Part shown: positions 1,415 through 53,884 of the stretch, piece after piece
Position numbering within the stretch: the first letter of the stretch is position 1
Layout: each line of letters starts with the position of its first letter
The notes under the pieces: generated by a model
Seen by the model: the letters and a program-made list of their open reading frames with translations, nothing else
The model's database searches: none
What the model was told of the DNA's origin: nothing
Made by a program: the position numbers and the translations under genes
From: an uncultured bacterium
GTDB taxonomy: Bacteria > Electryoneota > RPQS01
Assembly: GCA_963735175.1 (NCBI GenBank)
Contig: CAVTJX010000017.1
Location: 1,793-65,792, forward strand
Direction of reading: 5' to 3'
DNA length: 64,000 nt

Positions 1415-2363
1415 CTATCCGGGGCAGCAGGCCGGCGAAGCGTCTGGCGGTATTCGGCCGACCAGCCGTTCCACGACCGCGGACGCCGGCAGGATCTCAT
1501 GGATCATGCCCGCGCCCATCCCCGCTTCAAATTGACCTTCCTCCCAATCGCCTTCAAAGATGCCGCGCCGTTCGCGTTTCGCATCCAATAGCTGGCGCAA
1601 CTCTTCCGCGCTCGCCCCGCGCCGTTCCGCTTCCACGGCCTGAAGCGCGAACGGATTCTTCAGCATACGCGTGGGGCCGATGGCCTTCAGCGAGAGCACG
1701 GTGGCGGCTTCCCCCGCTTCGACTACCGCCTGCTTGTAACGATCCGATGCTGAAGACTCGACAGTAGCGGCGAAGCGCGTGCCGATCTGCACGCCGTCCG
1801 CGCCGAGCGCCATCGCCGCCGCAATCTGCCGGCCGTTGACAATACCGCCCGCCGCCAGCACGGGAATGCTCACCGCTTCACGCACCTGCGGCACCAGCAC
1901 GAACGTCGGGATCTCGTCCACGCCGTTGTGCCCGCCCGCTTCCGTGCCCTCGCAGACGACGGCGTCGACGCCGCGCTCGGCGGCTTTCTGCGCAAAGTTT
2001 GGCCGAGGGCACGACATGGACGACGATGACGCCCGCGGCTTTCAGCATTGCCGTGTAGACCGCCGGGTTGCCCGCCGCCGTGAAGACGATGCGCACGCCT
2101 TCTTCCACACAGACGTCGATGAGCTGCGCCGCATCGCCCCGCAAGAGCGGCACATTGACGCCGAAGGGAGTATCGCCGAGGGCGGCGCGCGCCTTGATGA
2201 TGTGCTCGCGCAGTAAATCCGGTTTCATTGATCCCGAGCCGATCAGGCCCAGCGCGCCCGCGCGGCTCACGGCGACACAGAGTTTCCATCCCGAGGTCCA
2301 GACCATGCCGGCCTGTACAATGGGATAGCGAATGCTGAACAGTTCCGTGACGCGGCTATGCAT
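1415..2363 (-). CDS. Nitronate monooxygenase / FabK-like FMN oxidoreductase, frame-broken near 1994-2000
   Basis: ORFs 1878..2426 and 1415..2017 together give MHSRVTELFSIRYPIVQAGM...VVPSAKL|AQKAAERGVDAVVCEGTEAGGH...GADGVQIGTRF. One +1 break lies at AAA-CTT-T-GCG. Confidence 0.7.
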
Positions 2364-2452
2364 CTTGCCCCATCCAAGCGCGACAGCCGCACGAAGGTTG
2401 CTTCGCGCGGCCGGCAGTGATTTCACGAAGCGTGTGGCCGCGCGTCAAAGAC

Positions 2453-3053
2453 TCAGTGCCCCCGCGCCAGTTTTACGAGATCGATCCGCCCCACTGGGGC
2501 GCCTTCGAGTTCTTCGGGATATTGCGGATGCGTCGTCAGGGCCGAGTTACGCAACAGGAAATCGCGGTCGATGTAGAACTCACCACGTTGATAGCCGCCC
2601 AGCTCCAGATAGCCCGTGTCCATGCGGATCGCGTCCTCGGGACAGGCCTCGACGCACAGACCGCAGTAACAGCAGCGCAGCAGGTCGATCTCGAAAGCGA
2701 CCGGATATTTTTCGATGCGGCCATCTTCGGTCTCGCCAGCGGTGATGTAAATGCAGCGGTCGGGGCAGGCGGTCTCGCACATCATACAGGCGACGCAGCG
2801 CGGCGCGCCGTCGGGCCGGAGCATCAGGCGGTGCAGGCCGCGCCAGCGGGGCGAGATCGGACGGCGCTCTTCAGGGTATTGAATCGTTACCGCCGGCGGC
2901 TTAGTCTTCATCCCCAACGCGCGGCCCGTGTGACGCGCGAGGTTGACGAAGAAGTGGCGGCTGGTGATGACCAGACCCTTCCAGAGTTCCGGATAGTAGG
3001 TCTTCTGCCAGAAGGGTGAGTTCGACCCGGCGGACCGGTTTGACGTCGATCAT
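2453..3053 (-). CDS. nuoI: NADH-quinone oxidoreductase subunit I, +1 break near 3011
   Basis: Two 4Fe-4S motifs (CVACMMCETACP, CCYCGLCVEACP). The N-terminus MIDVKPVRRVELTL is in another frame and joins WQKTYYPELWKGLVITSRHFF at ACC-CTT-C-TGG. Confidence 0.85.
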
Positions 3054-3079
3054 ATCAGCAAGTTTTCCGTTGCATCGTC

Positions 3080-4182
3080 TTAAGAGATGAGCATGAGGAC
3101 GAGGCCCGTGACGCCAATGTTCACGAGGGCGACGGGCATCGCCTCGCGCCACGAGGCGCGCATGAGCTGGTCGTAGCGGAAGCGCGGGTAGGTCCAGCGG
3201 ATCTGCATTTGCAGCCACATCAGCGCCGCGACCTTAAAGCCGAAGGCCAACATGCGCAGCGCGACTACGAGCCACTCGGTCACGGGCAGTAGGCGCCGCC
3301 GGGAAAATGAAAGCCGGAGTTGCCGCCCATCTCCACCGCGCCGTAAAGGTAGGGGATCTGGTAGCCGCCGAAGAAGATGGTCACGATGATGCCCGCGAGC
3401 ACGACGATTTCGGCGAATTCGCCGAGGAAGAACATGCCCCAGCGCATGCCGGAGTATTCGGTGGCAAAGCCGATGATTTCCGATTCGCCCTCGGGCAGAT
3501 CGAAGGGTGCGCGTTTGGTTTCGGCCATCGCCGCAGGTAAAAACAGCAGGAAAGCAATGGGCTGCACGATGATGCCCCACTTGGGCAGCCAGCCCCACAG
3601 CAGTTCGTTCTGCGCGGCCACCATCACCGACGGGTTCAGTGTGTGGAAGACGAGCACCGGGCCGATCAGCGCGAGGCCGAGCACGACCTCGTAGGAGATC
3701 ATCTGCGCCCCGCCGCGCATACCGCCCAACAGCGAGTATTTATTATTGGACGCCCAACCCGCGAGGATGGTTCCGTAAACGCCGAGACCCGTAAACGCCA
3801 GAATAAAGAGCACGCCAATGTCGAGGTCAAGGATCTGGAGCTTGATCAGCCGCTCGCCAATTTGAATGGGCGGGCCGAAAGGCAGCACGGCAAAGAGCAG
3901 GAAGACCGGCAGCATGGCAAAGATCGGGGCCAGCGCCCAAACCACTCGCAACGCCTTGGGAGGAATGAAGTCCTCCTTGAAGATCAACTTGATGGCGTCG
4001 GCAAAGGAATTGATGAGACCCCACAAGCGGATGCCGAGAATCGCGGCTCGGTTGGCGCCGATGCGGTCGGAGATCAGCGCGGCCTGCTTGCGCTCGACCC
4101 ACGTGAGGATCAGCGCGCCGGTCATGATACCGCCGAAGACGACCGCGATCTTGGCGAGGATGATGGCGAGATCAATTAACAT
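3080..4182 (-). CDS. nuoH: NADH-quinone oxidoreductase subunit H, -1 break near 3290 (C-run)
   Basis: ORF 3280..4182 (GWASNNKYSLLGGMRGGAQMISYEV...) continues in ORF 3080..3598 (LLPVTEWLVVALRMLAFGFKVAALMWLQMQIRWTYPRFRYDQLM). Confidence 0.85.
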
Positions 4183-4293
4183 GCGTGCTCATAAACCTCA
4201 AATGCCTTGATCAAGTGTCTTGACAAAGAATCCAATCTGGATCCGCCGGACTCTTGATGCCACAGCCTTACCAACCTTATGAAGTAAGCAGAT

Positions 4294-4961: not shown

Positions 4962-6643
4962 TCAGTAAGCGGGCAGGGGATTGGCCGACTGCACTTTACG
5001 ATACGGGGGTTCGGCGACGCCGGTCAACATTTTGCCGGAGAAGCCAAGACCTTCCCAGGTGAGGCCTTTGAAAAATGAACTCTGGGTACCGATGGCGTCG
5101 AAGACGTCGGCAGCAGTGGAGTAATTCCAGACGAAGCCAAGTTGGCCGGCCAGATCGCGCCAGACAGTCCATTCGGGAACTGCCATCTGCAGGGGAGGGA
5201 ACACCTGCTGCGCGCGCTGCACGCGGCCCTGGAAATTGGCGTAGGTCCCGTCGTACTCCGTCCACACGGCCAGCGGGATCACATCGTCCGCGATCGCTGT
5301 GAAGGCGTTCTCGTGCGTGCCCAGATAGAGTATGTAATCACAACGCTGGTCGAGCTTCTGCAGGTCTTTCGCCGACAGCGTCTTCGTAAGATCGTGGCCG
5401 ACAACGATCAGCACGTCGTATTCGCCTTCAATCGCCGCCTTCAGAATATCGTCGCCGGAGCTGCCGCCGCTGACCGTCGCGCCCAGTTCAAGGGCGAGGG
5501 CCCCGCGGCGGTTGGGCGTCAAGTCAGCGCGCATGAGGATCTCGTCTTCCCTGCCCGTTTCTTCGGGGCCGCAGGCGATGTCGATGGCGTCGACTCTGAG
5601 GCTCTCGACGAACAGGCGGCGGAGCAAAAAGAGGTCTTCGTTGGTGGAGTGCGGCGAAGCGAGGACGGCGATCGCGCCTCCCCCCTGCTTCGACATTGCG
5701 GCCTTGATTTTCGCGGCGGCGCGTTCGATGACCTGCGCGACCATCAGCGGGCTGCCGGTGCTTCCGGCTTTGGCGCGCGGGGCGAGCAGACGGTCGGGCG
5801 AGTCGACACGATGATAGCTATAGCGGCCCCGGTCGCAGAGCCACCATTCGTTGACGAGGCGGTTATAGCGCGGTTTGAGACGTTGAATACGGCGCTCGGG
5901 AGCCTTATAGGCGCGTTCCCGCTCCCAATCCACATGAATGTTACAGCCACGCGAACAGCCGGTGCAAATCGACGGAGCGCGCTTCAAATACCAGACGCGG
6001 CGCTTGAAGCGGAAATCCTTGTCGGTCAGCGCGCCGACGGGGCAGAGATCAACGACATTTCCTGCGTAATCGTTGGCAAGCTGCGTGCCGGGGACGCTCA
6101 TCGAGTTCGGCCTCGCCGCCGTGGCCGAAGATACCCAGTTCGTCGACGCCCGCAATCTCACGGCAGAAGCGCACGCAGCGCGAACAGAGCACACAGCGTT
6201 CGCTGTCCAGCACGACGGTGGGACCGACGTCGTAGACTTTGTGCTTGTGGCGCTTTTCGGCGAGGTCGACGCGGCTGTCGTGCAGGCCGTAACGCAGGTA
6301 GTAATTCTGCAGATCGCACTCGCCGGCGTCGTCGCAGATCGGGCAATCGAGCGGGTGATTCTGGAGCAGGAATTCGAGCGCGGAACTCTGTCGCTGGCGA
6401 ATCTCCGCGGTGTCGAAGAAACACCTTCATGCCGTCGACGGCGGTGGTATTGCAGCCGATGACCACGCCGCGGCGCCCGTTCTGCTCGACCTCGACCTGG
6501 CACATGCGGCAAGAGCCGACGATGGCGAGGCCGGGATGATAGCAGTAATGGGGGATCTCGATATTGAGGCGTTTCGCCGCTTCAATCAGATTGGTTCCGG
6601 CGGGAACCTCAACCGGCTTGGAATTTATTTCGATATACGGCAT
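4962..6643 (-). CDS. nuoG: NADH-quinone oxidoreductase subunit G (short form), two +1 breaks (~6415, ~6102)
   Basis: MPYIEINSKPVEVPAGTNLIEAAKRLNIEIPHYCYHPGLAIVGSCRMCQVEV...KVFL | DTAEIRQRQSSALEFLLQNHPLDCPICDDAGECDLQ...CVLCSRCVRFC...GEAEL | MSVPGTQLANDYAGNVVDLCPVGALT... read across three frames. Confidence 0.85.
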
Positions 6644-6706: not shown

Positions 6707-8210
6707 TTACAAATAATACGTATGCGCGACGGACCACAACAGCAACGCATTCACCGCCGCGAACAGCAGCAGGATCGCGTGCAGTGTCCAGCGGCGTGAC
6801 GCGCGCGGCGGGGTCCAGCCGCGCAGCAGCAGGAATACAAGCAGACCGAAGCCGGCGGTGGCCGCGAAACGCGCAAGCAACGCCTGATACTGGACGAGCG
6901 GGCGATGGAAACCGCCCCAGCGCACGACCCGTTCCACCGCACCGGCCGCCAGAGTATCCGCCACGAAACTGAAACACACAAGCAGCAAGCCGAGCACGAC
7001 ACCCGTCAGCAGTCGCCACCGCGGGCGCGGCGAACACGGCGCGGCATCCGCCGCGCGCAGCGCCCATACACCCCAAGCAAGGGTGCCGGCGACAAACGGG
7101 AACAGCAAACGACTCGAAAGATTTTGCGACGATTCCCGGCCGACCGTGAGCCAGGCGAGGAAGAAGAGCACGCCACCCAGCAGATATCCGCCGGCCACTC
7201 GCCAGGGAAACTCCATCTTGCTCCGCCGGGCGCCGTAAACGGTGAATGTGAGCGCTGTCAGGAGCAATCCAAGATACAGGCCGTAGTAGAAACCGGGCAG
7301 AAAGATCGAGGCCACGCCCGGCAGTCCCGCCGCGCTGAAGAACGCCCATTGTGCGCTCTTGGCAGTGACGATCACCCACGACTTCACGACAGGGAGCAGC
7401 CCCTGAGCCAGCGTAACCACACGATCCGGCTGCTGCGATTCAAGGACAGCGAGGTGCAGCGAGCGGTACATCGCCCAGCCACTCAACAGCAGTGGAACCG
7501 CAACGATCACCGCGAACCGCCGCCAGCCGCCCACGCGCCGCAGTTGCGGCAACAGCGCGGCGCAGAGCGCAATCCAGAAGAAAAACCACGGTCATCTTCG
7601 TCAGGATCGCCAACGCGAGCACGAATGCCGCGCGGGTCAGATCGGCCAGTCCCGGCTTATTCTGAGCGCGGGCGAGATACAGAAACGCCAGCGCGGACAG
7701 CGCCGCCGCAGGCATATCATTGCCTACGACTCCACCCATGAACGTGGTTTGGGCCGCGAAAGCCCACACACCCGTAACGAGCAGCGACAAGGCCTCCATC
7801 CCACCCAGCAGGATCACCAGACCGCGCCAGAGCCACCAGACCGTCAGGGCCAGCAACAGCGCGTTGGGTACGCGCAATAAATGGAATAGAGCGAGGTCAC
7901 GGGGTGAGGCGGCGGCGCGAATCGCCGAATTGTCGAACAGGTTGGCCCGGCCCGGGACAGAAGATTGATCGAACCGTGGATTCGGTGTCCAGACGATATC
8001 GGACAGGGAAAAGCCGGTGGCTGAGAGGATCACGCTGAGGGCAGCATAGTAGAGCGGCGCCTGATGCCCTTCCCATAGGCTGTCCGCGATAATATCCGCT
8101 TGCGCCGGCAGGTGGTGGTGGTCACGCAGGAACTCGGCGTATCGAATGTGCGCGCCCTCATCAGGGGCTTCACCGACGGGCACCAACAGCCCCCACAACA
8201 GTGCCAGCAA
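6707..8210 (-). CDS. GT-C fold (ArnT/PMT-like, GT39/83-type) integral membrane glycosyltransferase-like protein, +1 break near 7577; N-terminus uncertain (may extend to ~8248)
   Basis: Multi-TM protein with the first-loop motif GEAPDEGAHIRYAEFL. ORF 7440..8210 continues in ORF 6707..7552 at TTT-CTT-C-TGG. It lies between nuoF and nuoG. Confidence 0.55.
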
Positions 8211-8262
8211 ACCGGCGAGGGCGGCGTAAGCAACCGCGGCTCTTCCACGGGTGGCCGTGAAG

Positions 8263-9524
8263 CTACTCCTTCACCAGAGCTTCGAACTCATGGCGGAATT
8301 TCTTGATATAGCTCTTCGTCGGCCAGGCCACAGCTTGCCCGAGGGCGCAAATGGTCTTGCCGTCGATGTTATCCGCCAGTTCAAACAGATCGTCGAGATC
8401 GCGGCGGCGGCCGCGCCCGGACGCGATGCGCGTGGCGATACGCAACAGCCAGCCGGTGCCTTCGCGGCAGGGAGTACACTGGCCGCAGCTTTCGTGGGCG
8501 TAGAAGCGCGTCATCCAGACCATGAGCTTGGGGATGGAAACGCTGTCGTCGAGCACCATCACGGCGGCGGAGCCGAGCATCGAGCCCGCCGCGGAGACGG
8601 ATTCGAAATCGAGTTTCAGGCCTTCACATTCGGCGGCGGTGAGGATGTGCAAGGAAGAACCGCCGGGGATCACGGCTTTGAGCTTGCGGCCTTCCGCGAT
8701 GCCGCCGCCGTGCTCGTAGATAAGGGCGTGCAGCGGCGTGCCCATGGCCAGTTCGTAGACGCCGGGATTCTTCACGCAGCCGGAAAGCGAAAACAGGCCG
8801 GTGCCGCCGTTCTTGGGCGATCCCAGCGCGGCAAAGGCGTCGGCGCCCATTTCGAGGACGCGCGGCACGAAGGCAAGGGTTTCGATATTGTTGACGACCG
8901 TGGGCTTGCCCCAGAAGGCCGACGGCGGCGGGATAGAACGGCGGCTTAAGGCGCGGCCAGCCCTTCTTCCCTTCCAGCGATTCGATGAGCGCCGTTTCCT
9001 CGCCACAGATGTATTGACCCGCGCCGGTGGCCGTGTGGACCTGGCAGGACCAGCCGCTGCCGAAGAATGTTCTCGCCCCAGAAGCCTTTGGCTTTCGCGT
9101 CGGCGATGGCCTTCTCGACACTTCCATGGGATAGAAATATTCGCCGCGGACGTAGACGTAAACGCATTCCGCCTGCACGGCCCAGGCGCAGATCAGCGCG
9201 CCTTCGAGCATCAGGTGCGGGTCGTATTCGAAGAATCAGGCGGTCCTTGCAGGTGCCCGGTTCGGATTCGTCGCCATTGACGCAGACGTAGCGGGGGAAC
9301 TTGTCCTTGGGAATGAAGCCCCACTTGGCGCCGGCGAAGAAGCCCGCACCGCCGTGGCCGCGCAGCCCGGAGGCCTTGACGAGTGTGGTGACTTCCTCCG
9401 GCTTCACCTTCAGGGCGCGCTTGAACATTTCGTAGGCGCCGCGCTGCATGGCGCCGTCGATGGTGGCCTGGCCGGGCGCGGCAAAGTTGCGCAAGACAAG
9501 CCGTACAGTTCCGTTCGCGCTCAT
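8263..9524 (-). CDS. nuoF: NADH-quinone oxidoreductase subunit F, four frame changes (~9230 +1, ~9110 -1, ~9062 +1, ~8914 +1)
   Basis: GLRGHGGAGFFAGAKW, GDESEPGTCKDRLIL|EYDPHLMLEGALI, RGEYFYP..SVEKAIADAKAKGFWGENIL|GSGWSCQVHTATGAGQYICGEETALIESLEGKKGWPRLKPPFYPAAVGL|WGKPTVVNNIETL...ESCGQCTPCREGT, assembled from three track ORFs. Confidence 0.9.
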
Positions 9525-10067
9525 CGCGGCGCTCCTTCGACGGCGCCCACGTTGCCCAGCAGCGGCGTGGGTTCGTCGGGCGTCACGGGCACTCCCTTGC
9601 GGAAGCCGTAGAGGATGCGGTCAAGCTTTCCACTGTAGCTGGTAATACTGGTCCTCGTTGACGAGCATCATCGGCGCCCACGCGCAGCCGCCGAGGCACT
9701 CGACATAGCGCAGCGTGAAGAGGCCGTCGGTCGTCGTGCCGCCGTTATTAATGCCGAGCTTCTTCTTCCAGATGCGCCTGCAAATTCTCCGCGCCGAAGA
9801 GGCGGCGGAGATATTGTGGCAGAGCTGAATGACGTACTTGCCCACCGGGCCGGTGTGGAACATCGAATAGAAGGTGAGCACCTCGCGCACCTTGACGGCG
9901 CTGACGCCCACCGTCTCGGCCAGCCAGCGTTCGGTCTCGGGACTGATGAAGCCGAGTTCGCGCTGGGTTTCGAACATCAGCGGCACAAGCGCCGCCTGGC
10001 GGTGGTCCGCCGGGAAGCGCCGGATAATGTCGTCGGCTTTGCGCGTGAGCGATTCGGGAATTGGCAT
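9521..10067 (-). CDS. nuoE: NADH-quinone oxidoreductase subunit E, compensating frameshift pair (~9790/~9765) and a +1 break near 9635
   Basis: MPIPESLTRKADDIIRRFP...VIQLCHNIS..GAENLQAHLE..KKLGINNGGTTTDGLFTLRYVECLGGCAWAPMMLVNEDQYYQL|SGKLDRILYGFRKG...GAPR*. The stop overlaps the nuoF ATG (ATGA). Confidence 0.8.
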
Positions 10068-10767: not shown

Positions 10768-10775
10768 GCTTCCCA

Positions 10776-12086
10776 TCAGTGATCGAGCTCGCCGCCGATC
10801 ATGTTGACGGAACCGAATGTGGGGACGATGTCGGCGACCATGTAGCCATTGATCTGTTCGGGGAGTGCCGCCACGAAATTGTAACACGGCGGACGCACGC
10901 GGCAGCGCCACGGGCGGTCGTTGGCGCCGTCGGTGGAATCGGCGTTCGGGTAGCTGACGACATAGAAACCGAGCTTCGCCGTTGCCGCCTTCGACGGCGA
11001 CATAGACCTCGCCCTCGGGGACGCGGATGCCGTGGCCGCTCATGATCGAGCTTGAAGTGATTCATCAAGCCCTCGATGTTGCCGTAGGTGTCCTTCTTGG
11101 CGGGCAACACGACGCGCTTGTCGCTGGAGGAGACGGGGCCGCCGGGAATGCGGGCCACGCACTGCTCGAAGAATGCGGCAGGACTGCTCCATCTCTTCCA
11201 GGCGAACAAGGTAGCGGTCCATCACGTCGCCGTTATGGCCGACGGGGACGCTCCAGTCGAGCTGGTCGTAAACAAGATAGGGGAAATCCTTGCGCACGTC
11301 GTAGGCGACGCCGGTGGAGCGCAGCAGCGGGCCGGTCCAGCCCCAGGCGATGGCGCGGTCGGCACTCATCTTGCCAATGCCTTGCGTGCGTTCGACGAAG
11401 ATGCGGTTGTTGGTGAGCAGGATGTCGCATTCGGCGAGGATTTCGCGGGTCTCCTTCACCGTCCACAGCACCTTGTCGAGCCAGCCTTCGCGCAGATCGA
11501 AGGGCATGCCGCCGACGCGGGTGGCGTTGGTCGTGACGCGCGCGCCGCAGTAATCTTCGAGCAGTTCGTAATAGTATTCGCGGGCCTTGATCAGATAGAG
11601 GAAGACCGTGAACGCGCCGAGTTCCATGGCCTGCGCGCCAACGCAAGTGAGGTGGTCGGCGATGCGCGAGACCTCGCAGAGCATAGTGCGGATGTACTGG
11701 CCGCGGGGCGGAATGGTGACGCCCAGCAGTTTTTCCACGGCCATGCAGTAGCCGACGTTGTTGATGACGGGTGAGACGTAATTCAAGCGGTCGGTATAGA
11801 TGATCGCCTGGTTCCACGTGCAGTCTTCGCTGTGTTTTTCGAAGGCGCGGTGCAGGTAGCCGATTTCGACTTCGGAATCCACGACGAGTTCACCCTGCAG
11901 CCGCGTGACGATACGGATAATGCCGTGCATCGCCGGATGCGAGGGGCCGATATTCAGCAGCATGTCCTGCGTCTGGAACTCGGGCTCTTCGGAGGGAATC
12001 GCCGTGCCGGTGTCGTAGGGCGCGATGACGGGCGGCGGTGAATCGGTGGTGCGAGTGGTATCGTTCATGGATGCCGGTTTCGTCAC
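10776..12086 (-). CDS. nuoD: NADH-quinone oxidoreductase subunit D, three +1 breaks (~11168, ~11047, ~10985)
   Basis: LLNIGPSHPAMHGIIRIV...LEEMEQSCRIL|EQCVARIPGGPV...NIEGLMNHFKL|IMSGHGIRVPEGEVYVAVEGGNGE|LGFYVVS...PTFGSVNMIGGELDH*. The GTG start overlaps the nuoC stop. Confidence 0.9.
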
Positions 12087-14496: not shown

Positions 14497-16513
14497 TCAC
14501 CGAGTCGGTCGGTGCCGGCGCCGGACTCCCCCTCGCTCAGGGACCTTTTTGGGTGGGGGCTTCAGGCTGAAAGTCGCCTGCCGTTTCTGCAATTGCCCAG
14601 CACTGCGGAACGCGTCCCGGACGAGCGCATAGTCGGACGCGGGCAGCACATCCTGTTTGATCTCCACGATCTGTTCCCAATTCCAGCTATGGGCGTTCAG
14701 GCGGTTGCTGATTTCAATGTGCACATAGGGATTGTCGATGATGAGCGGCGAAGGCAGAGCAGCCAACGCATACCCCTCGGGCAAGACGACCGTGACCAGG
14801 GTTTCACAGCGGGATCGTGGCGGCATCCGGAGGGGGTACTGAATCGTGGTCCACGTTGTGTCGAAAGCCAGCCGTCCGAAGTTAAAGGGCGTTTCGGGAA
14901 TTCCAACGATCAGCCGGGAGCTGTCGCGGCGGGCATATTCAGGCGCGGCGAAGCGCACCTGCACAGCCACCGGGATGGCGAGATCCGTGAGGTCAGAAAT
15001 CGAATAGGATGCCACCTGCGCCGTGGGCGCAAAGCGGGCCAGCGCGGCATGAATGAACTCGGCGCGGCGGTCGTCGCCAAAGCCGGCGAATGTCGCCCGC
15101 GTTTCCGCGGCCTTGTCGCCTTGCGGTTCACACAGAATGAATCCCGAAAGTTCCCCGTTGGCCGAAAGGGAAACACGGATTTCCGTGCGCGCGCCACGCG
15201 CAGCGGGATTGCCGGGCGAAATCTCCTGCACGAGGGGCGCGCCGCCGACGAGCAGACAGGCTTTGCCATAGGTCATCGCGAAAGGCAGCACCGTCGGCGG
15301 ATAATTCACGGCGGCGGGATCGATCCAGAGCGTATCTTCGCTCGTGGGAACCGCCAGGACAATACGGGAGAATTGTTCGAGCAGCGGCAGTTCAGAAGAA
15401 CGGCAGTAGGCGGCCCGGAACCAGCACCGGGATCGGGCCGAAGCCGTAACCCCGCAGCAGTGCGGTGAGCAACACGGCTTTGTCCTGCGGATCGGCGTAG
15501 CGTTCACGGACAATCCAGTCCGCCGTATGCAAGGCGGCATCGACACGGCCCGCGGTGCGATTCACCGGGCGCACATTCTGCTGCACCCAGCGCGTGGCGT
15601 TCATGAGCGCGGGAATCCCCTGCAGCGTGGGCGGTGTACCGGCCATGAAACTGTCCACGGCCGCTAGACTGGAATCTACTTTATCCCAGAAGAGATTGTT
15701 GAAGGCGGTGCCGAGCGCTTCCCAGTCGGGGCAGGTTGTCCAGACAAGACGGGGGAGAATGAACGCTGCATCGACGACCGGCGGAGACACATCCAAAGCC
15801 GGACAGTTGAGCCGCGTCCAGGTGTAAACGGAATGGTGATTGCTCGCCACAACGAGCGGTTTGAGATCGCTGTTCGTAAGTTCCCAGCGGAGCCGGAACG
15901 GCTCGACGACATCGACCGTGACGGTTTTCTCAAGAATCGGATCCGGACCGCCGAAGAGCGCGATCCCGCCGGGCGGGACTGCGGCGCGACCTCCGGCGAC
16001 GGGAAGCGGTTCCAAGCGATAGGCGAAATAGACAGCGTCTCCGGAATCCACAGCGGTGAAGCTGACCGTGAGTTGCCGGAACTGTGAATAGCCGGCGATC
16101 CATTTCACTTCCGGAGCGGGCGCATCGACGAAAGCGGTTGAGTCGAGCGTAATCCAACGGCCATCCGCTTTCTGAATCCGCGCGGAGTCGATGACCACGG
16201 CGTGAGTATTTTCCTGATAACCGATGACCTGCTCCCGATAGTGTTCCCTACCCTCCGCAGAGAGGATCCGGCAGCGGAATTCGCGGCGGGTGTGCATGCG
16301 TCCGCTGGCGTCGATGGTGAGATGTTCGCGGTCGAATTCGATCACAGCCGAGGGCGACGGCTGGTCAGCTGGCCGCGAGACGGCGCCGTTCAGGCTGTCC
16401 AGAGGTTCCGCAGCCGCTCGCATTGACAGTGTCAACGACCATAACAGAAGCAGTCCGGCCAGGGAGCGGCGGCCATGATGCATGAAACCGTGTTGGAGAA
16501 TCGGGAGCGGCAT
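14497..16513 (-). CDS. DUF3857 / transglutaminase-like / DUF3858-type secreted protein, +1 break near 15393-15400
   Basis: ORF 15392..16513 (signal peptide, then AVIEFDREHLTID...) continues in ORF 14497..15546 (ELPLLEQFSRIVLAVPTSEDTLWIDPAAVNYP...). Architecture recalled from family knowledge, not searched. Confidence 0.5.
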
Positions 16514-22703: not shown

Positions 22704-23198
22704 GTGGCCCGACAATCGTTTATTACGGAGATCGAAGTCAGTCGCGACAAGGTTTGGAACCTGCTTATCGATCCCAAGGAATTCGCCTTTTGGGCGCCCA
22801 ATGTCCGCGAGCTGACGATGGAGCCCAACCAAATGGCCGTTGACTCGATCCGCCGTTTCCGGCTGGACGTGAGCGGCAAGATTGAGACTCTCGAGACCCG
22901 CATCACGCATGTCATCGACGGCGAAATGTTTGCGGAGATTCCCGTGGGCGGCTCGCTCAAGCTTCATGAAAAGGTTGAGCATCTGAAAATGGTCTACCGA
23001 CTTGAAGACGTGGACGCCAAGTCGTGCAGTTTGACATTCAATATTGACTGGGAGATGAAGGGATTCTTGAACAAGATGCTGGAAAAGGTCGTGATGGGGG
23101 CGTTTACATCCAATCTCCGGCTTCTGGTTCGAGCGTTTGAAAACCTATGCCGAAACCGGACGGCCCGTCTAATCCTTCACTCACAAATACCGATTTAA
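22704..23198 (+). CDS. SRPBCC (START/polyketide-cyclase-like) family protein, lower GC (~50%)
   Basis: GTG after [42 protein letters not shown]... is typical of an SRPBCC N-terminus. Confidence 0.5.
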
Positions 23199-33552: not shown

Positions 33553-33593
33553 CGCGTGCGACCTCCCCGCATCGATGAACGGATTTCCTGCTG

Positions 33594-34646: not shown

Positions 34647-34656
34647 CTTGAAATGC

Positions 34657-36893
34657 TCAAAACAGCTGAAATGCCAAAGAAACCAAAATGTGACCGATAC
34701 AGAATAGATTATTCGTCGGCGGCGGACAAGATTCGGGATAGAGGCGGCGATAGGCGGCGCGGTGTTCGATGTTGCGTTTGACGAAGAGCCGCGTCTCGCG
34801 GAAGGGAATGCGCTCAATGAACACGTCGCGCTCGCGCATACCGAACTTTTCACGTACCACGCCTGGGCGCGCGATTCGCCCGGCGTTGTATGCGCACAGG
34901 ACAAGGATCGTGTCACCGTGAAATTCTTCGAAGAGGCCAGCCAGGTGCGCAATGCCCAGTTCGAGATTGTGCAAGCCGGATCGTAAAGCCTGCTGGCGGA
35001 CGTGCGCAGACCGAGCTTGCGCGCCTCGAGGCGGGCCGTGGCCGGCATGAGCTGCATCAGGCCAATCGCGCCCGACGGGACTGATGGCGCCCGGATTGTA
35101 ATGGCTTTCCTGGCAGATGAGGCCGAACGACAAAGGACGGATCCAAGCCGTATTTTTCGCTCAGACGGCGGATGTCCTCGTCGTAAGCGCAGCGGATAGG
35201 CCGTGCTGAATGAAATCCGCCGGACGCGGTCCGTCGGAGCGCAGATAGGCTCCCAGGTCACTGAGAATAACCAGCCAGGCGGCGGAACGGTTGCCCTGCC
35301 AGAGCGTATGCTGCGCTTTCCACCAGATGAAACCATCGGTGCCGGGCAGTTCGCGGCGCGCCAGCGGCCATTCGCGCATGGCGAGATCCGACAGGCGCAT
35401 CGCGGTCAGCATCGCAAATTTGCGGCTAGTGCGGGCCGTAGGACCAAAGTTCGTCAAGGGACGGCGGGATCAGACGGCCGCTGCTTCGCGCTGCACGCGA
35501 CCGGCATGATCGCGCCGGAAAGCACGGCGTAGTAGGAAAACGGGAAAGCGGGCGAGGAGGTCGTCTTCGCGGGCCTGGGCCTCGGCGGACTGTCCGGCCA
35601 TTGCCGCCGCGCGGCTGCTCCAGTAGCGACCTGCCGAGGCATAATCGGAGCCATCGTTCAGGTCGGCCAGCCGCTGAAAGATGGCGGCGGCCTCGACCAT
35701 CTGATTGGCTTCCCACAGGGCGCGGCCAAAGCGCCAGAGGCAGTCGGCCTCTTCGCTGGTGCCTTTCCGCAGCTGCACGACACTCGCGATAGGCTGTCAC
35801 CGCCTCCGCCGGGCGTTGGCCCGGTCAAGGTGCAGCATGCCGAGCAGATTGAACGCTTCCGCCACCGTCTGGGGATCGTTCAGCGCTTGAGTGGCTAGTT
35901 TCCAGCGCGGGAATGGCGATGCCGTCCTGATCGGACAGGTAGGCCGAGCGTCCGAGGTAAAGCCGTGCCCGGTACTGGTAAGTCTCCCTTGGAAAAGCGC
36001 CGCAGGTAGTCCTGCAACGTCAGAACCGCGTCCCGATGCCTCCCGAGGCCACTTTGAAAGCGCCCCCGGTAATAGTCCAGGATTTCGTCGTTCGGGCCGG
36101 TTCCCAAACTGCGGGCGATTTCGCTGACCCGATCGAGACCGACGGCAAAGCTCCCGCCTCTCCTCCAACGCCTGAAACTCCGCTTCGAGTTCGGTTTTGG
36201 TTTGGGCGCGCGGTGCGTGGGCAAATTTCTTTTTGTAATTGGCAAGCAGGGATTGAATCTGCTGTGCTTCCGGAGTTGCGGGAGCAAGTAAATATGCCTG
36301 CCAGAGGCGGTTTACAGCCTCCTTGTGCCGACCGGCCGTCGCGAGGGCCTCGGCGGCGACTTGAGCCAGCTCTCTGCCGATCCGGAATTGGCGCAACACT
36401 TCGAGCGTGGCGGTCCACCAGATGCAGCAGGTCGTCCGGACGGGGCTCAGCGCGGAGGCCAAGAGCCAGTTCGAAAAGGGCTTGGTGTGCAAAGATCGAC
36501 GCAGTGTCCTCGCTCAGCCGCGCCCAGTGCGTACGGGCGAGGGATGTCCGTTTTGCCGCTGTCAGGGCATCGGCTCGCAGCCATTCGGCATAATCCTCAA
36601 GGTCAGCGGGAACCCCTTGATCGAGGTTCAGCAACACCCCGGCCGGATCGTTGTCCTGACGGGCAGACCAGGCCAACAGGAAATTTGCCATCGGTTTCGT
36701 GCAACCCAGGCCACCGTCTTTAGCTGTGTGCAGAAGGTTTACTGCCGGCGGCTTTGTTGCCCGCGCCCCGCAAATCCCAGTACTGGGCAAAACAGGCTGA
36801 GTCCTCGGCCAGAGGACCCGCCACAGACAGAGTGGTCAGGCAAAAAAGCCCAATGAGCGGCAGAAGCAGGAAGGAAGTCAAGTTGCGAAGCAT
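34657..36893 (-). pseudogene. slt: Slt70-like soluble lytic murein transglycosylase; many frame breaks (at least 7)
   Basis: Signal peptide MLRNLTSFLLLPLIGLFC. Superhelical N-domain fragments are spread over several ORFs. SLT catalytic region ...QESHYNPGAISPVGAIGLMQLMPATA...AYNAG...FIERIPFRETRLFVKRNIEH..Y. Pieces are in ORFs 36720.., 36020.., 35797.., 35470.., 35161.., 34494.. and 34657... Confidence 0.7.
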
Positions 36894-37066: not shown

Positions 37067-40007
37067 ATGCGCCGTCTCCTCACGCTTTCTCTAACTGTAT
37101 TGATTGCAGCGGTTTGCGCTCACGGACAGGATGTCTCGTTGTACGACATCCAGTACACTCCGAATCCAGACGGGATTTCCCCCCTTTCCGGCCAAACCGT
37201 GACCACCGGCGGCATCGTCACCGGCATTGCCTATCAAGGCTCAACCTCTCGCTATTTTCTTTCTGATCGTGGAGGCGGCCCGTGGCACGGAATCCTGGTT
37301 TATGAAAATCAGGGCCGCAACCTGGCTCTGGGCGATTCGGTCTACTTCCGGGCGGAAGTACAGGAATCCAATACTCAGACCCGGCTGCGCAACATCGTCC
37401 CGTCGAGTTTCGTTCAGACTCCGGCGGTGGCCGAAATCGCACCCTACGATACGACGACGGGGGGTATCGGCGAGGCCATGGAAGGGGTGCTCGTCGAATT
37501 GCACAATGCCGTCGTAACCGCGATCGGCAGCGGCAATTTCACGGTGGATGACGGCAGCGGTCCGGTGACGATCAGTGACGGCTGGGAGTATTTGTTCACC
37601 CCCCTGGTGGGCGACACACTGATATTCATTCGCGGCCTCGTGCACTTCCGTCGCCAATCAGTTTTCGGTGAATCCCCGCGACGATTTCGATTTCGGATTC
37701 CACGGCAACCGGCCGCCGGTGATTACCGGCGTCTCGTTCTCACCGGAAATGCCCTCGGCGCTGGAGTCGGACACCGTGACCGCGCAGATCATCGACGACT
37801 CGTTGATGGCCTCCGCCACGATCTACTACCGCTTCGCTCCGTACGGGGATACCGGGTCGGTGTATCTGACGCAGTCGATGTATGACGACGGCACGCATGG
37901 CGACGCAACGGCCGGCGACAGTATCTGGACCGGCATCATTCCCGCCGGACCGGGCCGGATGTTCGCCTCGTTTTACGTGAAGGCCACGGACAACGTAGAA
38001 TGCCTTCGCCACCAGCCCGACTGACGCACCACTGGCGACCTACACCTACATGATCCGTTCGGCCACGTTCTCGGTGTTTGACGCGCAGTATACCGGTTCA
38101 CCCACGGGCGGCAGTCGGCGATTTCACAGACCACGTGCCAGACGATGACCGGCATCGTGACGGCAAGCCGGTTCGGCGGACGCAACACGATTTCTTCATT
38201 GCCGATCCGGGCGGCGGTCCGTGGAGCGGCCTCGATGTGCTACAGCCCGCCTTCGGCGGCCGAGTGTGGGAGACTGCGTGCGCGTGACGGCAACGATTCA
38301 GGAATTCCAATGAGTTTGACGGAACTCTCGCCGACGACCCGCGTGGACGTGCTCGGCTCGGGGCATCGTTCCCGCGCCACATACCGATTCCCTCGGCATC
38401 ATGGCGCGACTCTGCCGAAGCTTACGAGGGTACGCTGGTCAGCATCGAAGGCACTGCGTCGTGACGGACGTCAGCCCTGGAACTACAGGAATACGGCTTC
38501 AAGGTGCGCGACGGGCACAGCAGATGTCGTGGTGGTCAAAGATTGGCCGTGGGAATATGAACCGGCCGTCGGCGACACCTTCACGCGGCATGACCAGGCG
38601 TGCGTCGACTATCTACAGCGGCAACGGCTGGGAACTGGCGCCGCGCGCAGGACGCCGACATCGGACTACATCGACCATCGCGCGCCCGCACTTTCGCAGC
38701 ATGAGCACCGTGGGCGAACGCGAAATCAATGTGCGTCTTCAACGAGGCGCTGTCGCCGACCGGACTGGACGTAATCGCCAATTACCGGGTGATCGACCAG
38801 ACCGATCCGTCCTTCCCCGAGTTGCACGTCGCTTCCGCTTATCTGTTTTCGACGGCACGGACGATTCATATCGAGGTGATGGAAGCACTGGCGGACAGCC
38901 ATGCGTATCGTCTCGAAATCACCCGCGTGACAGACCTCGTCGGCAACGCGCTGGAAAACGTGACCACCAGTTTTGGCGGCTACTCGCCGACGCCGTGCGC
39001 GAGCGCGGCGGATATCTACGCCAACTTCTCGCAGTACGAATCCCAGGCAGTGACCATGCGCGGCGTGGTGACCTTCATGCAGGACGTGACGACAACGTCA
39101 GGTTCGCGGCGCATTTCCGCCTACCTGCAGGATGCAAGCGGCGCGGGCATGAGCATTTCGAACTCGGGCGCGGCCAGTACTTATCCCGGAATCCAGCGCG
39201 GCAATTTTATTGAAATTTCCGGCCAGATAACGGCCTACGCGGGGACGATCCAGATGGGAGCGTTTACGGCGGCGAGCATGAGCGTCCTTGCCGAGCATGT
39301 GCCGCTGCCCGCGCCGATCGTGGTAAATACCGGCGACCGCCGGTTACAGCGGCAGATTGTCCACACCTCGTCGCAGGACAATTACAGTTCGGGCACGTGG
39401 ATTCAGACGACGGGCGCGATCCGCGCGGTTGACGAGAACGTCGGCGGCGGCACGAACATCCAGATCGACGATGGGTCGGGCAACCTGATCATCCGTTTGT
39501 GGGATTCGATGAATGTCGACAGCGTGCTGCTGGCAGACCACTGGTACCGCCTGCGCGACCTGCCCGGCAAGCGGCTGACGATTCTGGGGCCGTCTTCAAC
39601 CTACAACGGCGATTTCCAGATGCTGGTCGGCTACGCCGAGGACTTTCAAGGTTCCGGCGGACGAACTGGGGATGGGCCTTGCGGAAACGATGAACTTGTC
39701 CATCGGTGACGCGACACAGACCTTTGAGAACCGGCCGTTCGCGCCGGATCTCGGCCAGACGCTGAAATTGCGCGTCGAATCGCCGGCTGCCAGCGAGGTG
39801 CGGCTGCGCGTCTTTGACTTGCGCGGGCACATGGTGAAGACACTGTGGGACAATCCGTCAGGCGGTTCAGTCATCATCGACTGGAACGGCCGGGACGATT
39901 TGAACAACCTGCTGCCCATGGGCACCTACCTGCTGCACCTCGAATGCGTGCGCAATGGCAAGACGGAAAGCAAGATGAAGCCGGTGGTGATTGGCACCCG
40001 GTTGTAA
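37067..40007 (+). pseudogene. Large secreted protein with three YhcR-like OB-fold modules, an Ig-like module and a T9SS/FlgD-Ig-like C-terminal domain; at least 8 frame breaks
   Basis: Signal peptide MRRLLTLSLTVLIAAVCAHGQ. OB modules: VSLYDIQYTPNPDGISPLSGQTVTTGGIVTG...; FSVFDAQYTGSPTGG...VTGIVTA...FFIADPGGGPWSGLDV...VRVTATIQEF; AADIYANFSQYESQAVTMRGVVT...IEISGQITAYAGTIQM. Tail LRVFDLRGHMVKTLWD...LPMGTYLLHLE... Confidence 0.6.
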
Positions 40008-40050: not shown

Positions 40051-40969
40051 TTGAAATTCCTGGCAACGCTTTTGTTTTTGATTGTGCCGCTGATCGCGGC
40101 CGCGCAACTGGTCTCCAATCCGAATCCTCCCGTGCCCGCCGCGCAGGCTGTGGGCGGCGCTTACACTGCCGCGGCGACCGGCGCCGAGGCGCTCTACTGG
40201 AATCCCTCGGGACTTGCCTACGGCAAGGGATCCGAGGGCCGCTTTGCCTACCAGCAGATCTGGGGCGCGAGTTTCCTGTCGCACCTTGCGGCCAGCGGCT
40301 ACACGACGCTGCCGCGCGGATTCGGCGGCGTGGCCCTCAGCGTGCAGAACCTGGGAACGCGGGACGGCGGATCCACCCTGGCCAACGAAAACGAAATCGC
40401 CCTGGGGCACGGCTTGCTGCTGCAGCGTGACATCCACTCCTCGCTGGCTTTCGGCTATACCCTGAAGCTGATCCAGTACAGCCTCGGCGAGTCCGTGGCC
40501 GACGCCAACGGCAACAGTCTGCATCTCGGCAACGCCAACGCGTTGGGTATCGATGTGGGCGCGACGGCGCAGCTCTGGGATCGCTTCCGGTTGGGCGGCG
40601 CTTTCAAGAACATCAACAATCCACAGATGGGCGGCAGCGGGCACGAGCGGGATTTGCCGCGGATGCTGTCCGCCGGCGTCGCCTATTCGCCGTATTACGC
40701 CGTACGCACGACCTTCGACCTGGAACGGATTCTTCTACGGCGAGACACAGTTCAAGGCCGGCATCAACGCGCAAGTGGTGGAACCCCTGGACCTGCGCCT
40801 CGGCGTGATCACCAATCCCAATAGTTTTACGGCGGGCTTTGGCTTCCACTGGCGGGAATTGGTACTGGACTATGCCTTCATGTATCACCCGGTGCTCAGC
40901 CCTTCGCATCTTGTCGGTATCGGCTTTAACCTTGACCAATCCGTTGCAGAGATCGGGAAGGCCAAATGA
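40051..40969 (+). CDS. PorV/PorQ-like outer-membrane beta-barrel protein, +1 break at 40735 (ATT-CTT-C-TAC)
   Basis: TTG start after AAGGA. Signal peptide KFLATLLFLIVPLIAAAQ; AVGGAYTAAATGAEALYWNPSGLAY signature. Continues in ORF 40553..40969 (YGETQFKAGINAQV...). Confidence 0.55.
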
Positions 40970-43522
40970 AGCGAGTGGCGCTGCTACTAATCGGTCTGGC
41001 GCTCGTGTGCCTGCGTGCAGACGCGGCGGAGGTGTTCGAACTGAACACCGCGACGCTGGATCAGCTCCATACGCTGCCGATCACCGATGCCCAGGCGGAT
41101 ATCATCTGGCAGCATTTGTTGTATGAAGGCCCCTTCGAATCGATCTACGAAGTGGGCGATCTACCCGGCTTTGACGCGCAGACGCTGGCCGCCCTGCGCG
41201 AGCGGATTCGCGTAAATTCGCCCCGCCCCGTCGACGCGCGCATCGAACGCATCGAAGACGCGTATTACCGCATCGAAACGCTGGGCACGGAAGAAGGCAC
41301 CAATGTCGGCCTGGTGGACGAATGGATCGACCGCCTGATGGAGCCCTTGAACGTCAACGAAGCGTCGCTGGACGAGCTGATGGACCTGCAGAATGTGTCG
41401 CCCGCGGACGCGGTGGCGATCTATCAGGGGGTGCAGCGGCAGGGCGGCATTCGCGGCGCGCGCGATCTGCGGGCGGTTCCCGGTCTTTCCGACTGGGGCT
41501 ATCGCAACGCGCGTAATTATCTCGGCTATGACAGCACGCGCCACGCCAACCGGCTGCACGGAACCTACACTTTCCGCGCCTACAACACGCCGTTCTTCGC
41601 CGACGAAGAACTGGCGATTGATCCGAGCGCACTGATCGATCCCCGGCCCGACGTCAGCCACAAACTGCGCATGACGTACGGCACAGTGAAAGGCGGAGTA
41701 CTGTGGCATCGCAACCTGGGCGAAGAAACGTTTTCCGCCAGCGGCACCGCTAATATTCCGGAATTGAAGTGGTTCGCCGGAATCGAGAAGCGCCGTCTCG
41801 GTCCCATTCAATTTGACCGGACTTACATCGGCAGTTATCAGGTCTCCTTCGGGCAGGGCCTGGTGATGGAAAGCGGCGACTATTTCAGTCCGCGCTATTC
41901 GGGTTTCGGCTTCGACAAGCGCATCACGGGCGTCGCCCCGGATCTTTCGCGCGCTCAGGAACTGACGATGCGCGGCGCGGCCACCGAGGCGCGCTACGGC
42001 AAGTTCAAGGCGGTGGGATTTTTCTCGGCGGACAAGAAAGACGCGGTCTTGAATCCCGACGGCTCGCTGAACCGCCTGATCACCCTCGTCCCCCGCACCG
42101 ATCAGGATATTTACCCCTCCTATCAGAAGCTGGAAAACGGCGACACGGTATTCGTGCCGGCGTATGCCGGCAGGCAGTCGATGCTGAACGCGGTGACGGA
42201 AGTCGGTCTCGGCGGCGAGTTGGCCTTCCGCCCGTGGGCCGGCGCCTCGCTGGGTTTTGCCGCAACGCAGTTCATGTACAATAAACCGCTTAAGCCGGAT
42301 CTTGGGCAAACGTACCGCTTTGACGCGAAGACCCGCTCGGGCGCCGACACGGCGGTGGAACTGTATGCCGTGATCGACCCGCAGGAGCGCGACGAGATCG
42401 CTGACAACGATCTCAATTCCGAGATCCGGACCGCTTACCGCTCCACTGGCACCTCATCGCTGTGGTCCGGAGCGAATTCTGTGCGGCGGATTTACGGCTT
42501 CAGTCTCATGAGCGTGCTGAACAACTACACGTTTCAGGCCGAATACGGTGAGATGGACAACGGCGGCGGCTTTCTGAAGCAGGGCGACGAGCCGCACGCG
42601 CTGGTGACGTCGCTGCACGCGCAGTGGAATTCGCTGACGGCACTGGCCGTCTACCGCGATTATTCCATCGACTACGACAATCCCTACTGCCGCGGTTTCT
42701 CCAACTACGCGCGCTACAACGGCTCAACCTACGAAGACGAGTTCTATCTTGCGCAACCGGTGTTCGCGCAGTTAGAGCGCAACGCGGCGGGACCGCAAGC
42801 CGAGCGCGGCGTCTACTTCTTCGACTCGCTATCAGGTTTCGCGGCCTCTGACCGTTGACGCCGAGGCGGACAACTGGACGCGCGTCGCCGATCAGGCGGA
42901 TTATTACCGCTGGGTGGCGAAAATCGCCTACCGGCCCGTCTGGCCGATCGTACTCCGTATCCGGCAGAAGTTGCAGGGACGCTGGAACTACGACTTTGAG
43001 AAAGAAACCGGATTCAAGACGTACGAGAATCGCATCAACCTTGAATTCCGCCTGTCGCGCTACGACAATATCGACTTCCTTTACGCCACCGGCTACACGA
43101 GCTTTACGCCCCGGCCACGACTCGGCGGTCAAGTCGATCCGAACGGCCTCTCGCCCCTGGATGCGCAGGGCGCTTCGCCGACAGAGGCGCTGGGCGTGCA
43201 GATGACGCACAACTTTTCGCCCTACTTCCGCGTGCGCGGCGCGTGGTTGATCTACGACGGTTTCTTCTGGAACTTCGAAGACAGCGACTTTGCCGTGCTC
43301 GACGGACGCTCGTCTCGCTGGTGGGTGTCGATTTCGAACCGGCTTTCCGGTTCGCTGGCATTGCGCGCTAAGCTGACCGGCGACAGTGCTTATCCCGTTA
43401 CGTGGGTGCAGGCCCGCGACAACAACGCCTATCCGACGACAATTCCGGGCCGCGAATATACGGGCGACAATGTGACGAAAAACGCGTTGTCATTCCGCAT
43501 CCAGCTCGATTACCTGTTTTGA
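40966..43522 (+). CDS. Outer-membrane beta-barrel protein with two N-terminal ComEA-like helix-hairpin-helix domains, +1 break ~42815-42830
   Basis: LNTATLDQLHTLPITDAQADIIWQHLLYEGPFESIYEVGDLPGF and LNVNEASLDELMDLQNVSPADAVAIYQG...LRAVPGL, followed by ~650 aa of beta-rich sequence ending ...SFRIQLDYLF*. ATGA overlap with the upstream gene. Confidence 0.6.
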
Positions 43523-52400: not shown

Positions 52401-52493
52401 GCGATTGTATCTCCGGCCAACCGAGGTCCAGCCTGTGACCACGATCAAGGTGAGAAATCAGTGGCGATGCCCATGGTGGCACACCGATCCGGC

Positions 52494-52564
52494 TGGGGCG
52501 GAAGGACTCGAACCTCCGAATGCCAGGACCAAAACCTGGTGCCTTACCAACTTGGCTACGCCCC
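52494..52564 (-). tRNA. tRNA-Gln (anticodon UUG)
   Basis: Minus strand GGGGCGTAGCCAAGTTGGTAAGGCACCAGGTTTTGGTCCTGGCATTCGGAGGTTCGAGTCCTTCCGCCCCA. Anticodon stem CCAGG/CCTGG, loop TTTTGGT. Confidence 0.85.
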
Positions 52565-52595
52565 AAACAGCAATACAACCCGCGTCTGCGCGAAC

Positions 52596-52895
52596 TTAGT
52601 CGGCAACGCCGTGACCGGGCGCGTTCGGCAGGACGGCATCCGCTTCAACCATCCGGCGGTACTCGTCCAGAATCTGCGCCTCCAGCATCTGCCTAAATTC
52701 GTTGGAAATCGGATGGGCGATGTCTTTGTACGTCCCGTCTTCCAGCTTGCGGCTGGGCATACAGACGAACAATCCACTCTTTCCCGCGATGACCTTGAGG
52801 CCCCGGACCACGAACACGTCGTCGAACGTGACGTTGACAAAGGCCTTCAATTTGTCCTCATCACGGAGGTTGATGTTGACCTCGGTGATGTTCAT
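52596..52895 (-). CDS. spoVG: Septation protein SpoVG
   Basis: MNITEVNINLRDEDKLKAFVNVTFDDVFVVRGLKVIAGKSGLFVCMPSRK; GGAGGAG RBS. Confidence 0.9.
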   Translation of the reverse strand: MNITEVNINLRDEDKLKAFVNVTFDDVFVVRGLKVIAGKSGLFVCMPSRKLEDGTYKDIAHPISNEFRQMLEAQILDEYRRMVEADAVLPNAPGHGVAD

Positions 52896-52950
52896 GTTGG
52901 CTCCTCCTCGTGCCCTTCCGTGTGATGAGCACAGGGCCGCTGTTCCCGCT

Positions 52951-53884
52951 CTAAGGAGTCGGATAACTGCGCGACCGGTTGGCTGTGCGGCATATTCGCA
53001 CTTGGAACGGCGGCCCAAACTGCTGCGCGGCGTGCATCGCCTGGGTCCGCTCCACGAATAATCCGAAAATTGTCGACCCACTGCCTGAGAGCATAGAGAC
53101 CCCCGCTCCCAGATCAAGCAACTTTTGCTTTACCCAGCCGAAGTTCTGAATATTTTTCTAAAACTATAGATTCCAAATCGTTACGGAAATTCTTCCAACT
53201 CCATGGGCCATTGACCCTGTCTGTTGGACGAGACTTTAAAATAACACTTTTATCATCACCTGTCAAGGGGAATCGTCCCGCTGAGTAGGCCCAGGCCGTG
53301 CTTACACCAAACGGGGGGATCACCAGCACCACGTCACCGCTGGCACAACCTTCCAGTAGTTCCAACTGATCCCCCCGCCCGGTACCGCGCGCCAGCCCTC
53401 CATAGAGGAAAAAGGCACAATCAGAGCCAATTTCAGCGGCAATCGGGTGCAATCGTCCCCGCGGCCAATCCAGCCCCCAGAGCCGCGACAGGCCCATCAG
53501 CGCGATGGCAGCATCCGACGAGCCCCCGCCGAGTCCTCCGCCGAGGGGGATTGCCTTCTCAAGGACCACACGTCCCGCCAGTGGCACTCCGGCCGCACCG
53601 GACAAACGCTGGGCCGCCTGCACAATGAGGTTTGACGGTCCCGTATCCAGCGCCGCACCGTGGATTTCCAGGCTCCACGCAGCCGCCGGATGGAATTCCA
53701 GCCGGTCGGTCAACGAAATTTCCTGAAACAGCGTGTCCAGATCGTGATAGCCGTCGGACCGTTTGCCCAGGACCCGCAGGTCGAGGTTGATTTTCGCCGG
53801 GGCGAGCAACGCAAAACCACCGCCGGGCAGCGGTTCGCAGTCGGGATAGTCTGAGTCGTCGGGAGCGTGACAGGTGGCGCGCAT
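52951..53884 (-). CDS. ispE: 4-diphosphocytidyl-2-C-methyl-D-erythritol kinase, +1 break ~53125-53140
   Basis: LLAPAKINLDLRVLGKRSDGYHDL...KAIPLGGGLGGGSSDAA...NDLE... The C-terminal LDLGAGVSMLSGSGSTIFGLF is found only after a frame change. Confidence 0.85.

Follow-up and report, generated by a model that had tools for sequence, protein, structure and literature searches.

A 64,000-nucleotide stretch of contig CAVTJX010000017.1 (GenBank assembly GCA_963735175.1, positions 1,793 to 65,792 of the forward strand; hereafter the window), which comes from an uncultured bacterium, contains many genes whose reading frames are broken by single-base insertions or deletions, a recurrent subset of them at the tetranucleotide CTTC. 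An initial annotation had noticed that many such breaks follow an in-frame CTT (Leu) codon and had offered two readings, a k-mer-specific insertion artefact at TTCTTC/GAAGAA and genuine recoding by +1 ribosomal frameshifting or quadruplet decoding at CUU-C. The breaks and their association with CTTC are real features of the deposited sequence, and our comparisons with related sequences indicate that they are very probably best explained by sequence-specific insertion errors within a generally error-rich assembly. The artefact reading is supported by events that are independent of reading frame, occur also in antisense orientation, differ between assemblies and lie among about 37 other indels, deletions included. 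The recoding reading founders on 20 unbroken in-frame CTT-C sites, on a following codon that is neither a stop nor consistently rare, on the lack of a flanking signal and on relatives in which the genes are intact.

Results

Frame breaks are frequent in conserved genes and enriched at CTTC

We mapped frame breaks against one relative (JGI Ga0376481_000004, the same as NCBI DASXUQ010000005), represented by three loci of 21-23 kb each (L081, L084 and L166) that are syntenic with window positions 1-57,400 and in which all genes are uninterrupted. The relative's proteins were aligned to the window DNA by frameshift-aware dynamic programming, and breaks were kept as robust only where the alignment was strong on both sides. 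Over the 49.3 kb of coding DNA covered by this protein-to-DNA alignment, 42 single-base insertions and 7 deletions qualified, for a total of 49 robust breaks. They lie in genes that include a conserved housekeeping set (nuoC-I, alaS, asd, selD, ispE and cinA), and on both sides of every break the protein sequence is 70-90% identical to that of the relative. CTTC lies within the 9-mer at 12 of the 42 robust insertion breaks against a background of 2.7% (p = 7.6e-10), and the association is therefore real and not a product of chance. The recurrent break described at CTT-C thus stands as an enrichment, although the sites originally listed cover about a third of the breaks and most robust breaks (about three quarters) fall in contexts other than CTTC.

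The letters at every position in the initial annotation are as it described them, and orthologue alignment recovers its breaks at 1994 (an insertion in the NMO-like gene), 3011-3014, 6415, 8914, 9062, 9230, 11168, 15397, 25536, 40735, 42820 and 53140, together with those in nuoG at 6102, nuoD at 11047 and pgpA at about 20296; the breaks at 7577 and 38007 are placed by continuity of the open reading frame (ORF) only. Breaks absent from that list include a third one in nuoD (10974), two in nuoE (9765 and 9801, for a total of three in that gene), others in nuoF (9119), nuoC (12178) and nuoH (3289), a CTT-C-TGG site at 23124, and some 20 in asd, selD and a gene with an SLT domain; deletions are among them, as in nuoC, nuoF and nuoH. 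Two of the listed sites parse differently from what had been proposed. The nuoI break (3011..3014, minus strand) had been read as following a CTT Leu codon, but the orthologue has Phe at this position (LTFWQK), so that the site is an extension of a C run, ACC[C]TTCTGG, with the extra C before TTC (ACC-[C]-TTC-TGG). The supposed nuoE break after CTA-C resolves into two 1-nucleotide deletions relative to L083, a sister contig described below. For the OB-fold gene the orthologue alignment (43% identity) was too weak to place breaks, and those break calls were discarded.

Break density is highly uneven along the window (chi-square p = 1.6e-8). Twenty of the 49 robust breaks fall in the 32-40 kb bin, where they are concentrated in asd, selD and the SLT-domain gene at 32.9-36.9 kb; orthologue alignment places none between 43.5 and 53.1 kb, and at 57.4-63.7 kb no ORF break was seen, with ftsK, comB, gcvT and a PBP-like gene appearing intact. 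Uniform action along the genome would be expected of a decoding rule but not of local consensus quality. The densest zone (32944..36740, minus strand), with about 20 robust breaks in 4 kb, both insertions and deletions, contains no CTTC-type event, which suggests two error processes: a locally poor consensus here, arising from low coverage or strain mixture, and separately from it the k-mer error.

The CTTC events are best described as changes of a DNA k-mer

Seventeen events are of the CTTC type, 14 of them on the sense strand and three antisense (9765, 21618 and 10974). The base after CTTC is G or T in all 17, compared with 60% in the background, and TT precedes CTTC in ten; when the 17 are aligned in CTTC orientation, neither a longer (methylation-type) motif nor any other conservation beyond (T)(T)CTTC[G/T] is found. 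Wherever a second sequence shows the undisturbed state (L083 at 9230, 9765 and 10974; L168 at 23124), that state is CTC or TTC. The event is therefore best described at the level of DNA k-mers, with TTCTC[G/T] becoming TTCTTC[G/T] and CTCTGG becoming CTTCTGG.

Typically the result looks like an in-frame CTT followed by an extra C. On the minus strand this form is found in nuoG (6412..6420, TTT-CTT-[C]-GAC within TTCTTCG, the break at 6415 coming from orthologue alignment), at three sites in nuoF (GGC-CTT-[C]-TGG at 8911..8917, ATT-CTT-[C]-GGC at 9059..9067 and ATT-CTT-[C]-GAA at 9227..9235), in nuoD (11165..11173, ATT-CTT-[C]-GAG) and in ispE (53138..53143, GAA-CTT-[C]-GGC, likewise placed by orthologue alignment); a putative site in the PMT_2/GT-C gene (7574..7582, TTT-CTT-[C]-TGG) comes from ORF continuity, the gene having no counterpart in the relative. 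On the plus strand it is found in a Polyketide_cyc2/CoxG-like gene (23119..23125, CGG-CTT-[C]-TGG, where the JGI relative L168 reads AAG-CTC-TGG; the site is new with respect to the earlier list), in alaS (25531..25537, TTT-CTT-[C]-GAA, from orthologue alignment) and in a TraF_2/PorV-like gene (40730..40736, ATT-CTT-[C]-TAC, with intact 306-aa homologues in JGI assemblies), and ORF structure points to a putative site in the OB-fold/FlgD-Ig gene (38003..38008, TGC-CTT-[C]-GCC).

The same change is found where no CTT codon is in frame. The initial annotation had cited the DUF3857 and HhH-OMP genes as out-of-frame cases that favour an artefact, and both hold: in the former (15394..15400, minus strand, CCG-TTC-[T]-TCT, break at 15397) TTCTC has become TTCTTC, and in the latter (42815..42821, plus strand, TAC-TTC-[T]-TCG, break at 42820) TTCTCG has become TTCTTCG, in each with CTC out of frame. 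On the antisense strand the k-mer is changed in nuoE (9763..9770, minus, CTG-GA[A]G-AAG, where L083 has GAG), in the conserved AESCTGG motif of cinA (21614..21620, plus, GCG-GAG-[A]-AGC, antisense CTCT to CTTCT) and in nuoD (10972..10977, minus, GAA-[G]-CTC, where L083 reads GAA-CTC without the G, antisense TTCG to CTTCG). None of these out-of-frame and antisense cases can be a ribosomal event at a CUU codon. Within the window the rates are equal in the two classes, as conversion of TTCTC[GT] affects 6 of the 28 sites that have CTC in frame and 2 of the 11 that do not (Fisher p = 1.0). Codon usage explains the usual appearance of the events: among 1766 Leu codons CTC (464) is second only to CTG (863, the commonest codon), and on the sense strand the CTC of CTC[GT] is in frame in 344 of 476 cases, so that a change in CTC mostly takes the form of an in-frame CTT with an extra C. 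CTT itself, which had been expected to be rare, accounts for 155 of the Leu codons and is not very rare. Most of the true states involve CTC, which is also flanked by G insertions (6102, 11047 and 10974) and has lost a C at 9636 and 9118, and CTC/GAG appears to be a general trouble spot of this data set.

Genuine recoding would require the extra base to be in the genome and to be passed over by a +1 shift or read by a quadruplet-decoding tRNA-Leu at CUU-C, the breaks outside CTTC being ordinary assembly errors. CUU is a known +1 slippery P-site codon, used in prfB and Ty1, and this reading would also accommodate the in-frame CTT that precedes the skipped base at 9-11 sites with a Leu conserved in orthologues, the excess of sense-strand events (14 vs 3), the two sites common to both assemblies (8914 and 11168) and the rare 0-frame codons, CGA or CTA, that come after several sites. 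Nevertheless, 20 of the 29 in-frame CTT-C sites are read normally, including rplI ATT-CTT-CGC with the full proposed WTT-CTT-C-G motif, and the 0-frame codon after CTT is CGA at four sites, CGG at two, CGC at one, CTA at one and CTG, the commonest codon, at four, and never a stop. Neither an upstream nor a downstream element is conserved, the nuoI site makes better sense as Phe preceded by an additional C, and the window encodes two tRNAs only, Ala(CGC) and Gln(TTG), neither of which is a tRNA-Leu. Together with the out-of-frame events, which occur at an equal per-site rate, and the antisense ones, these observations leave recoding exceedingly unlikely in our judgement.

Breaks differ between closely related assemblies

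The broken products of the window are present in public protein catalogues, where two of them, P0029 and P0122, are assigned to one 258,407-bp NCBI/ENA contig. P0029 is a 342-aa 'NuoD' whose out-of-frame tail begins precisely at the CTT-C site of nuoD; P0122 is an AlaS shortened at its N-terminus. P0029 shares a 90% cluster with P0121, which derives from the 5.4-kb sister contig L083 (ENA ERZ25039545 contig_83716), 98.3% identical to the window at 14396-10775 and 92.4% identical at 10088-8352 (L083 3616-5357). The comparison with an independent assembly that the initial annotation had proposed goes in favour of an artefact, since L083 is without the window's extra base at 9230, 9062, 11047, 10974 and 9765 and has it at 8914 and 11168. 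At 9062 it reads ATT-CTG-GGC and at 9230 ATT-CTC-GAA, so that at 9230 the window's additional base is a T within CTC. L083 thereby shares two of the four CTT-C sites of the overlap. About 12 frame breaks are its own, and in nuoB it has a private break (GTG-CTT-[C]-TGG) where the window has an intact GTG-CTC-TGG; most breaks are private to one assembly. Such gain and loss of sites at 98% identity, in assemblies that both carry many unrelated indels, speaks further against recoding and, as far as the aligned sequences can tell, is the behaviour to be expected of context-driven consensus errors in two error-rich assemblies.

Real frameshift mutations would offer another source for these differences, the genome or a collapsed strain population having gained indels through pseudogenisation or in a lineage that is deficient in mismatch repair and has a slippage hot spot at CTC/TTC. 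They would fit breaks that are numerous and that differ between two closely related contigs, and the hot spot does make short tandem repeats (TTC-TTC), as replication slippage can. On the other hand, the 98.3%-identical segment, 3.6 kb of DNA that is mostly coding, has 13 gap openings and 47 mismatches, far too many gaps for coding DNA under selection and an indel-to-substitution ratio between strains far above what purifying selection would allow, and essential single-copy genes (complex I subunits, alaS, asd, ispE) are struck several times each. The flanks remain 70-90% identical to the relative where genes freed from selection would diverge, and stretches with about 5 breaks per kb are interspersed with others of about 10 kb that are free of errors. 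We therefore consider real mutation very unlikely.

Every relative examined is uninterrupted at the break positions (L081, L084, L166, L168, L169 and the proteins P0364, P0366 and P0367). In short JGI contigs of related species (84-88% identical) the genes are intact at 23124 and 40735, and intact homologues of 155 aa and 306 aa cluster at 90% or more with the window's truncated products. A look-up with SpoVG returned three contigs, one of which (L167) is 88% identical and without ispE, and a Logan contig (ERR15459707) that encodes an identical SpoVG has an intact ispE of 310 aa. A contig of JGI 3300075153 has an OB-fold ORF that runs uninterrupted for at least 594 aa, and its PorV homologue is intact.

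Outside coding DNA, the window and L083 differ in the length of intergenic homopolymers (C6 vs C7 and G7 vs G8, at window 13665 and 13137), differences typical of long-read consensus sequences. The identity of L083 to the window falls from 98.3% to 92.4% across the nuoD/nuoE boundary, which suggests a strain chimera or recombination at the site of the insertion described in the next section.

Gene content and other features of the window

The window has a G+C content of 59-64% and carries the nuo (complex I) operon, a dnaX-recR-pgsA-pgpA-cinA-recA-recX-alaS cluster, asd-selD, an outer-membrane gene cluster, glyQS, ribosomal protein genes, ispE and ftsK. Its closest relatives are uncultured KSB1/Calditrichota-like metagenome-assembled genomes, with a NuoD identity of at most 86%; a scan of metagenome contigs with GlyRS found relatives at 64% identity or less only, and an exact look-up of the window's SucD gave no match.

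An insertion of about 690 bp (window 10088-10775) separates nuoD from nuoE; neither L083, at 98% identity, nor the relative (L081) has it. On the minus strand an ORF at 10436-10798 includes '...FGYVLMPDHLHALV...', a sequence similar to the HUH motif seen in Y1 transposases of the REP-associated or IS200 type, and this ORF has no Pfam match at E <= 0.01. Between nuoF and nuoG lies the PMT_2/GT-C membrane glycosyltransferase gene (6710-8270, minus strand), and because the syntenic relative has nothing at that position we take the gene to be a lineage-specific insertion into the operon. The OB-fold/FlgD-Ig-like region (37000-40000) is split across several frames and apparently has an Ig-like module at its N-terminus that the relative's 639-aa protein lacks.

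Discussion

On the explanation that we favour, the window belongs to a 258-kb contig of a KSB1/Calditrichota-like metagenome-assembled genome whose consensus would have an indel error roughly once per kb of coding sequence, and one recurrent class of error would insert a base and turn CTC or TTC, the true sequence before G or T, into CTTC. Typically (A/T)TT-CTC-G/T would become TTCTTC-G/T and CTC-TGG would become CTTCTGG, and the product would mimic a +1 slippery site. The errors are likely to come from base calling or consensus building with a noisy long-read technology, the contig names suggesting a Flye-type long-read assembly, and a context effect of the base-caller or polisher, or a DNA modification, may be behind the k-mer specificity. 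Indel-induced frameshifts and fragmented gene calls are well documented in long-read metagenome-assembled genomes below about 40-fold coverage (PMC9262707).

The window resembles such genomes, of the nanopore or PacBio CLR type, in its frequent single-base indels in conserved genes, in the way these differ between assemblies, in its intergenic homopolymer differences, in local variation of error density and in truncated catalogue products (P0029, P0122). Indels of both signs occur in conserved genes with conserved flanks, and they are not reproduced between near-identical assemblies, which is what consensus errors would give. The profile is unusual in two respects, since insertions dominate here (42 vs 7) whereas nanopore errors are usually described as deletion-biased and homopolymer-centred, and since one short context that is not a homopolymer (CTC/TTC to CTTC before G/T) accounts for about a quarter of the insertions.

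A known +1 system is that of the RF2 gene prfB, in which, at CUU-UGA-C, CUU also occupies the P site and the next base is skipped, a C at the window's CUU-C sites. The window sites differ from prfB in having no stop after CTT and no upstream Shine-Dalgarno-like stimulator, in being unconserved in orthologues and in being spread over many genes. Ty1 (CUU-AGG-C) uses the same CUU slippery codon, and Euplotes illustrates that many genes of one genome can need +1 shifts, but the window sites have no consistent hungry codon (CGA, CGG, CGC, CTG or CTA follows), leave the motif unbroken at 20 in-frame sites, and belong to a class of events that is frame-independent and found on both strands. In short, the slippery codon is not always in the 0 frame, no consistently slow A-site codon, stimulator or sufficient motif accompanies it, and the sites are not conserved in orthologues, as programmed +1 frameshifting would have them be.

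Several observations weigh against the assembly-error explanation. The case for it is built from assembled sequences, and the extra bases could be present in the DNA. Insertions exceed deletions six to one, unlike the usual nanopore consensus profile, and a literature search found no published report of a CTTC/GAAG k-mer error in nanopore data. The CTTC events are commoner on the sense strand (14 vs 3, binomial p = 0.013); the strand comparison called for in the initial annotation thus gave a mixed answer, with events in antisense as well (3 of 17) and with a weak sense excess that k-mer supply explains only in part (unaffected sites: 45 in sense vs 20 in antisense; residual Fisher p = 0.17). 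We also considered, and rejected, a pyrimidine or sense-strand bias common to all errors, since the non-CTTC insertions have none. The extra base at 8914 and 11168 is common to the window and L083, and systematic error and inheritance would both produce that. Finally, 13 of 14 other long-read metagenome-assembled loci fetched with NuoD have no nuo breaks, and the remaining one (L010) has two, neither at CTTC, and the k-mer error was therefore not reproduced in unrelated organisms.

The two sites common to both assemblies, nuoF 8914 (GGC-CTT-C-TGG) and nuoD 11168 (ATT-CTT-C-GAG), would be the best candidates for true CUU-C recoding. The idea that this KSB1-like lineage truly has a minority of the CTT-C sites in its genome and decodes them by an efficient +1 frameshift, with ordinary assembly errors hiding them, has in our estimate a close to negligible probability; if true, it would mean widespread bacterial +1 recoding in core respiratory genes.

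Insertion errors in the assembly remain by far the better account, and they carry lessons beyond this contig. A context-specific insertion error can resemble a classical CUU +1 slippery site so strongly that an attentive reader is misled, and truncated or out-of-frame products of this contig, such as P0029, are already in public catalogues. Any screen for programmed frameshifting on long-read metagenome-assembled genomes should begin by asking whether the events are independent of frame, symmetric between strands and reproducible from one assembly to another. For the biology of the organism, the breaks are very probably unimportant: its genes would be ordinary ones, and the apparent recoding an artefact of consensus quality.

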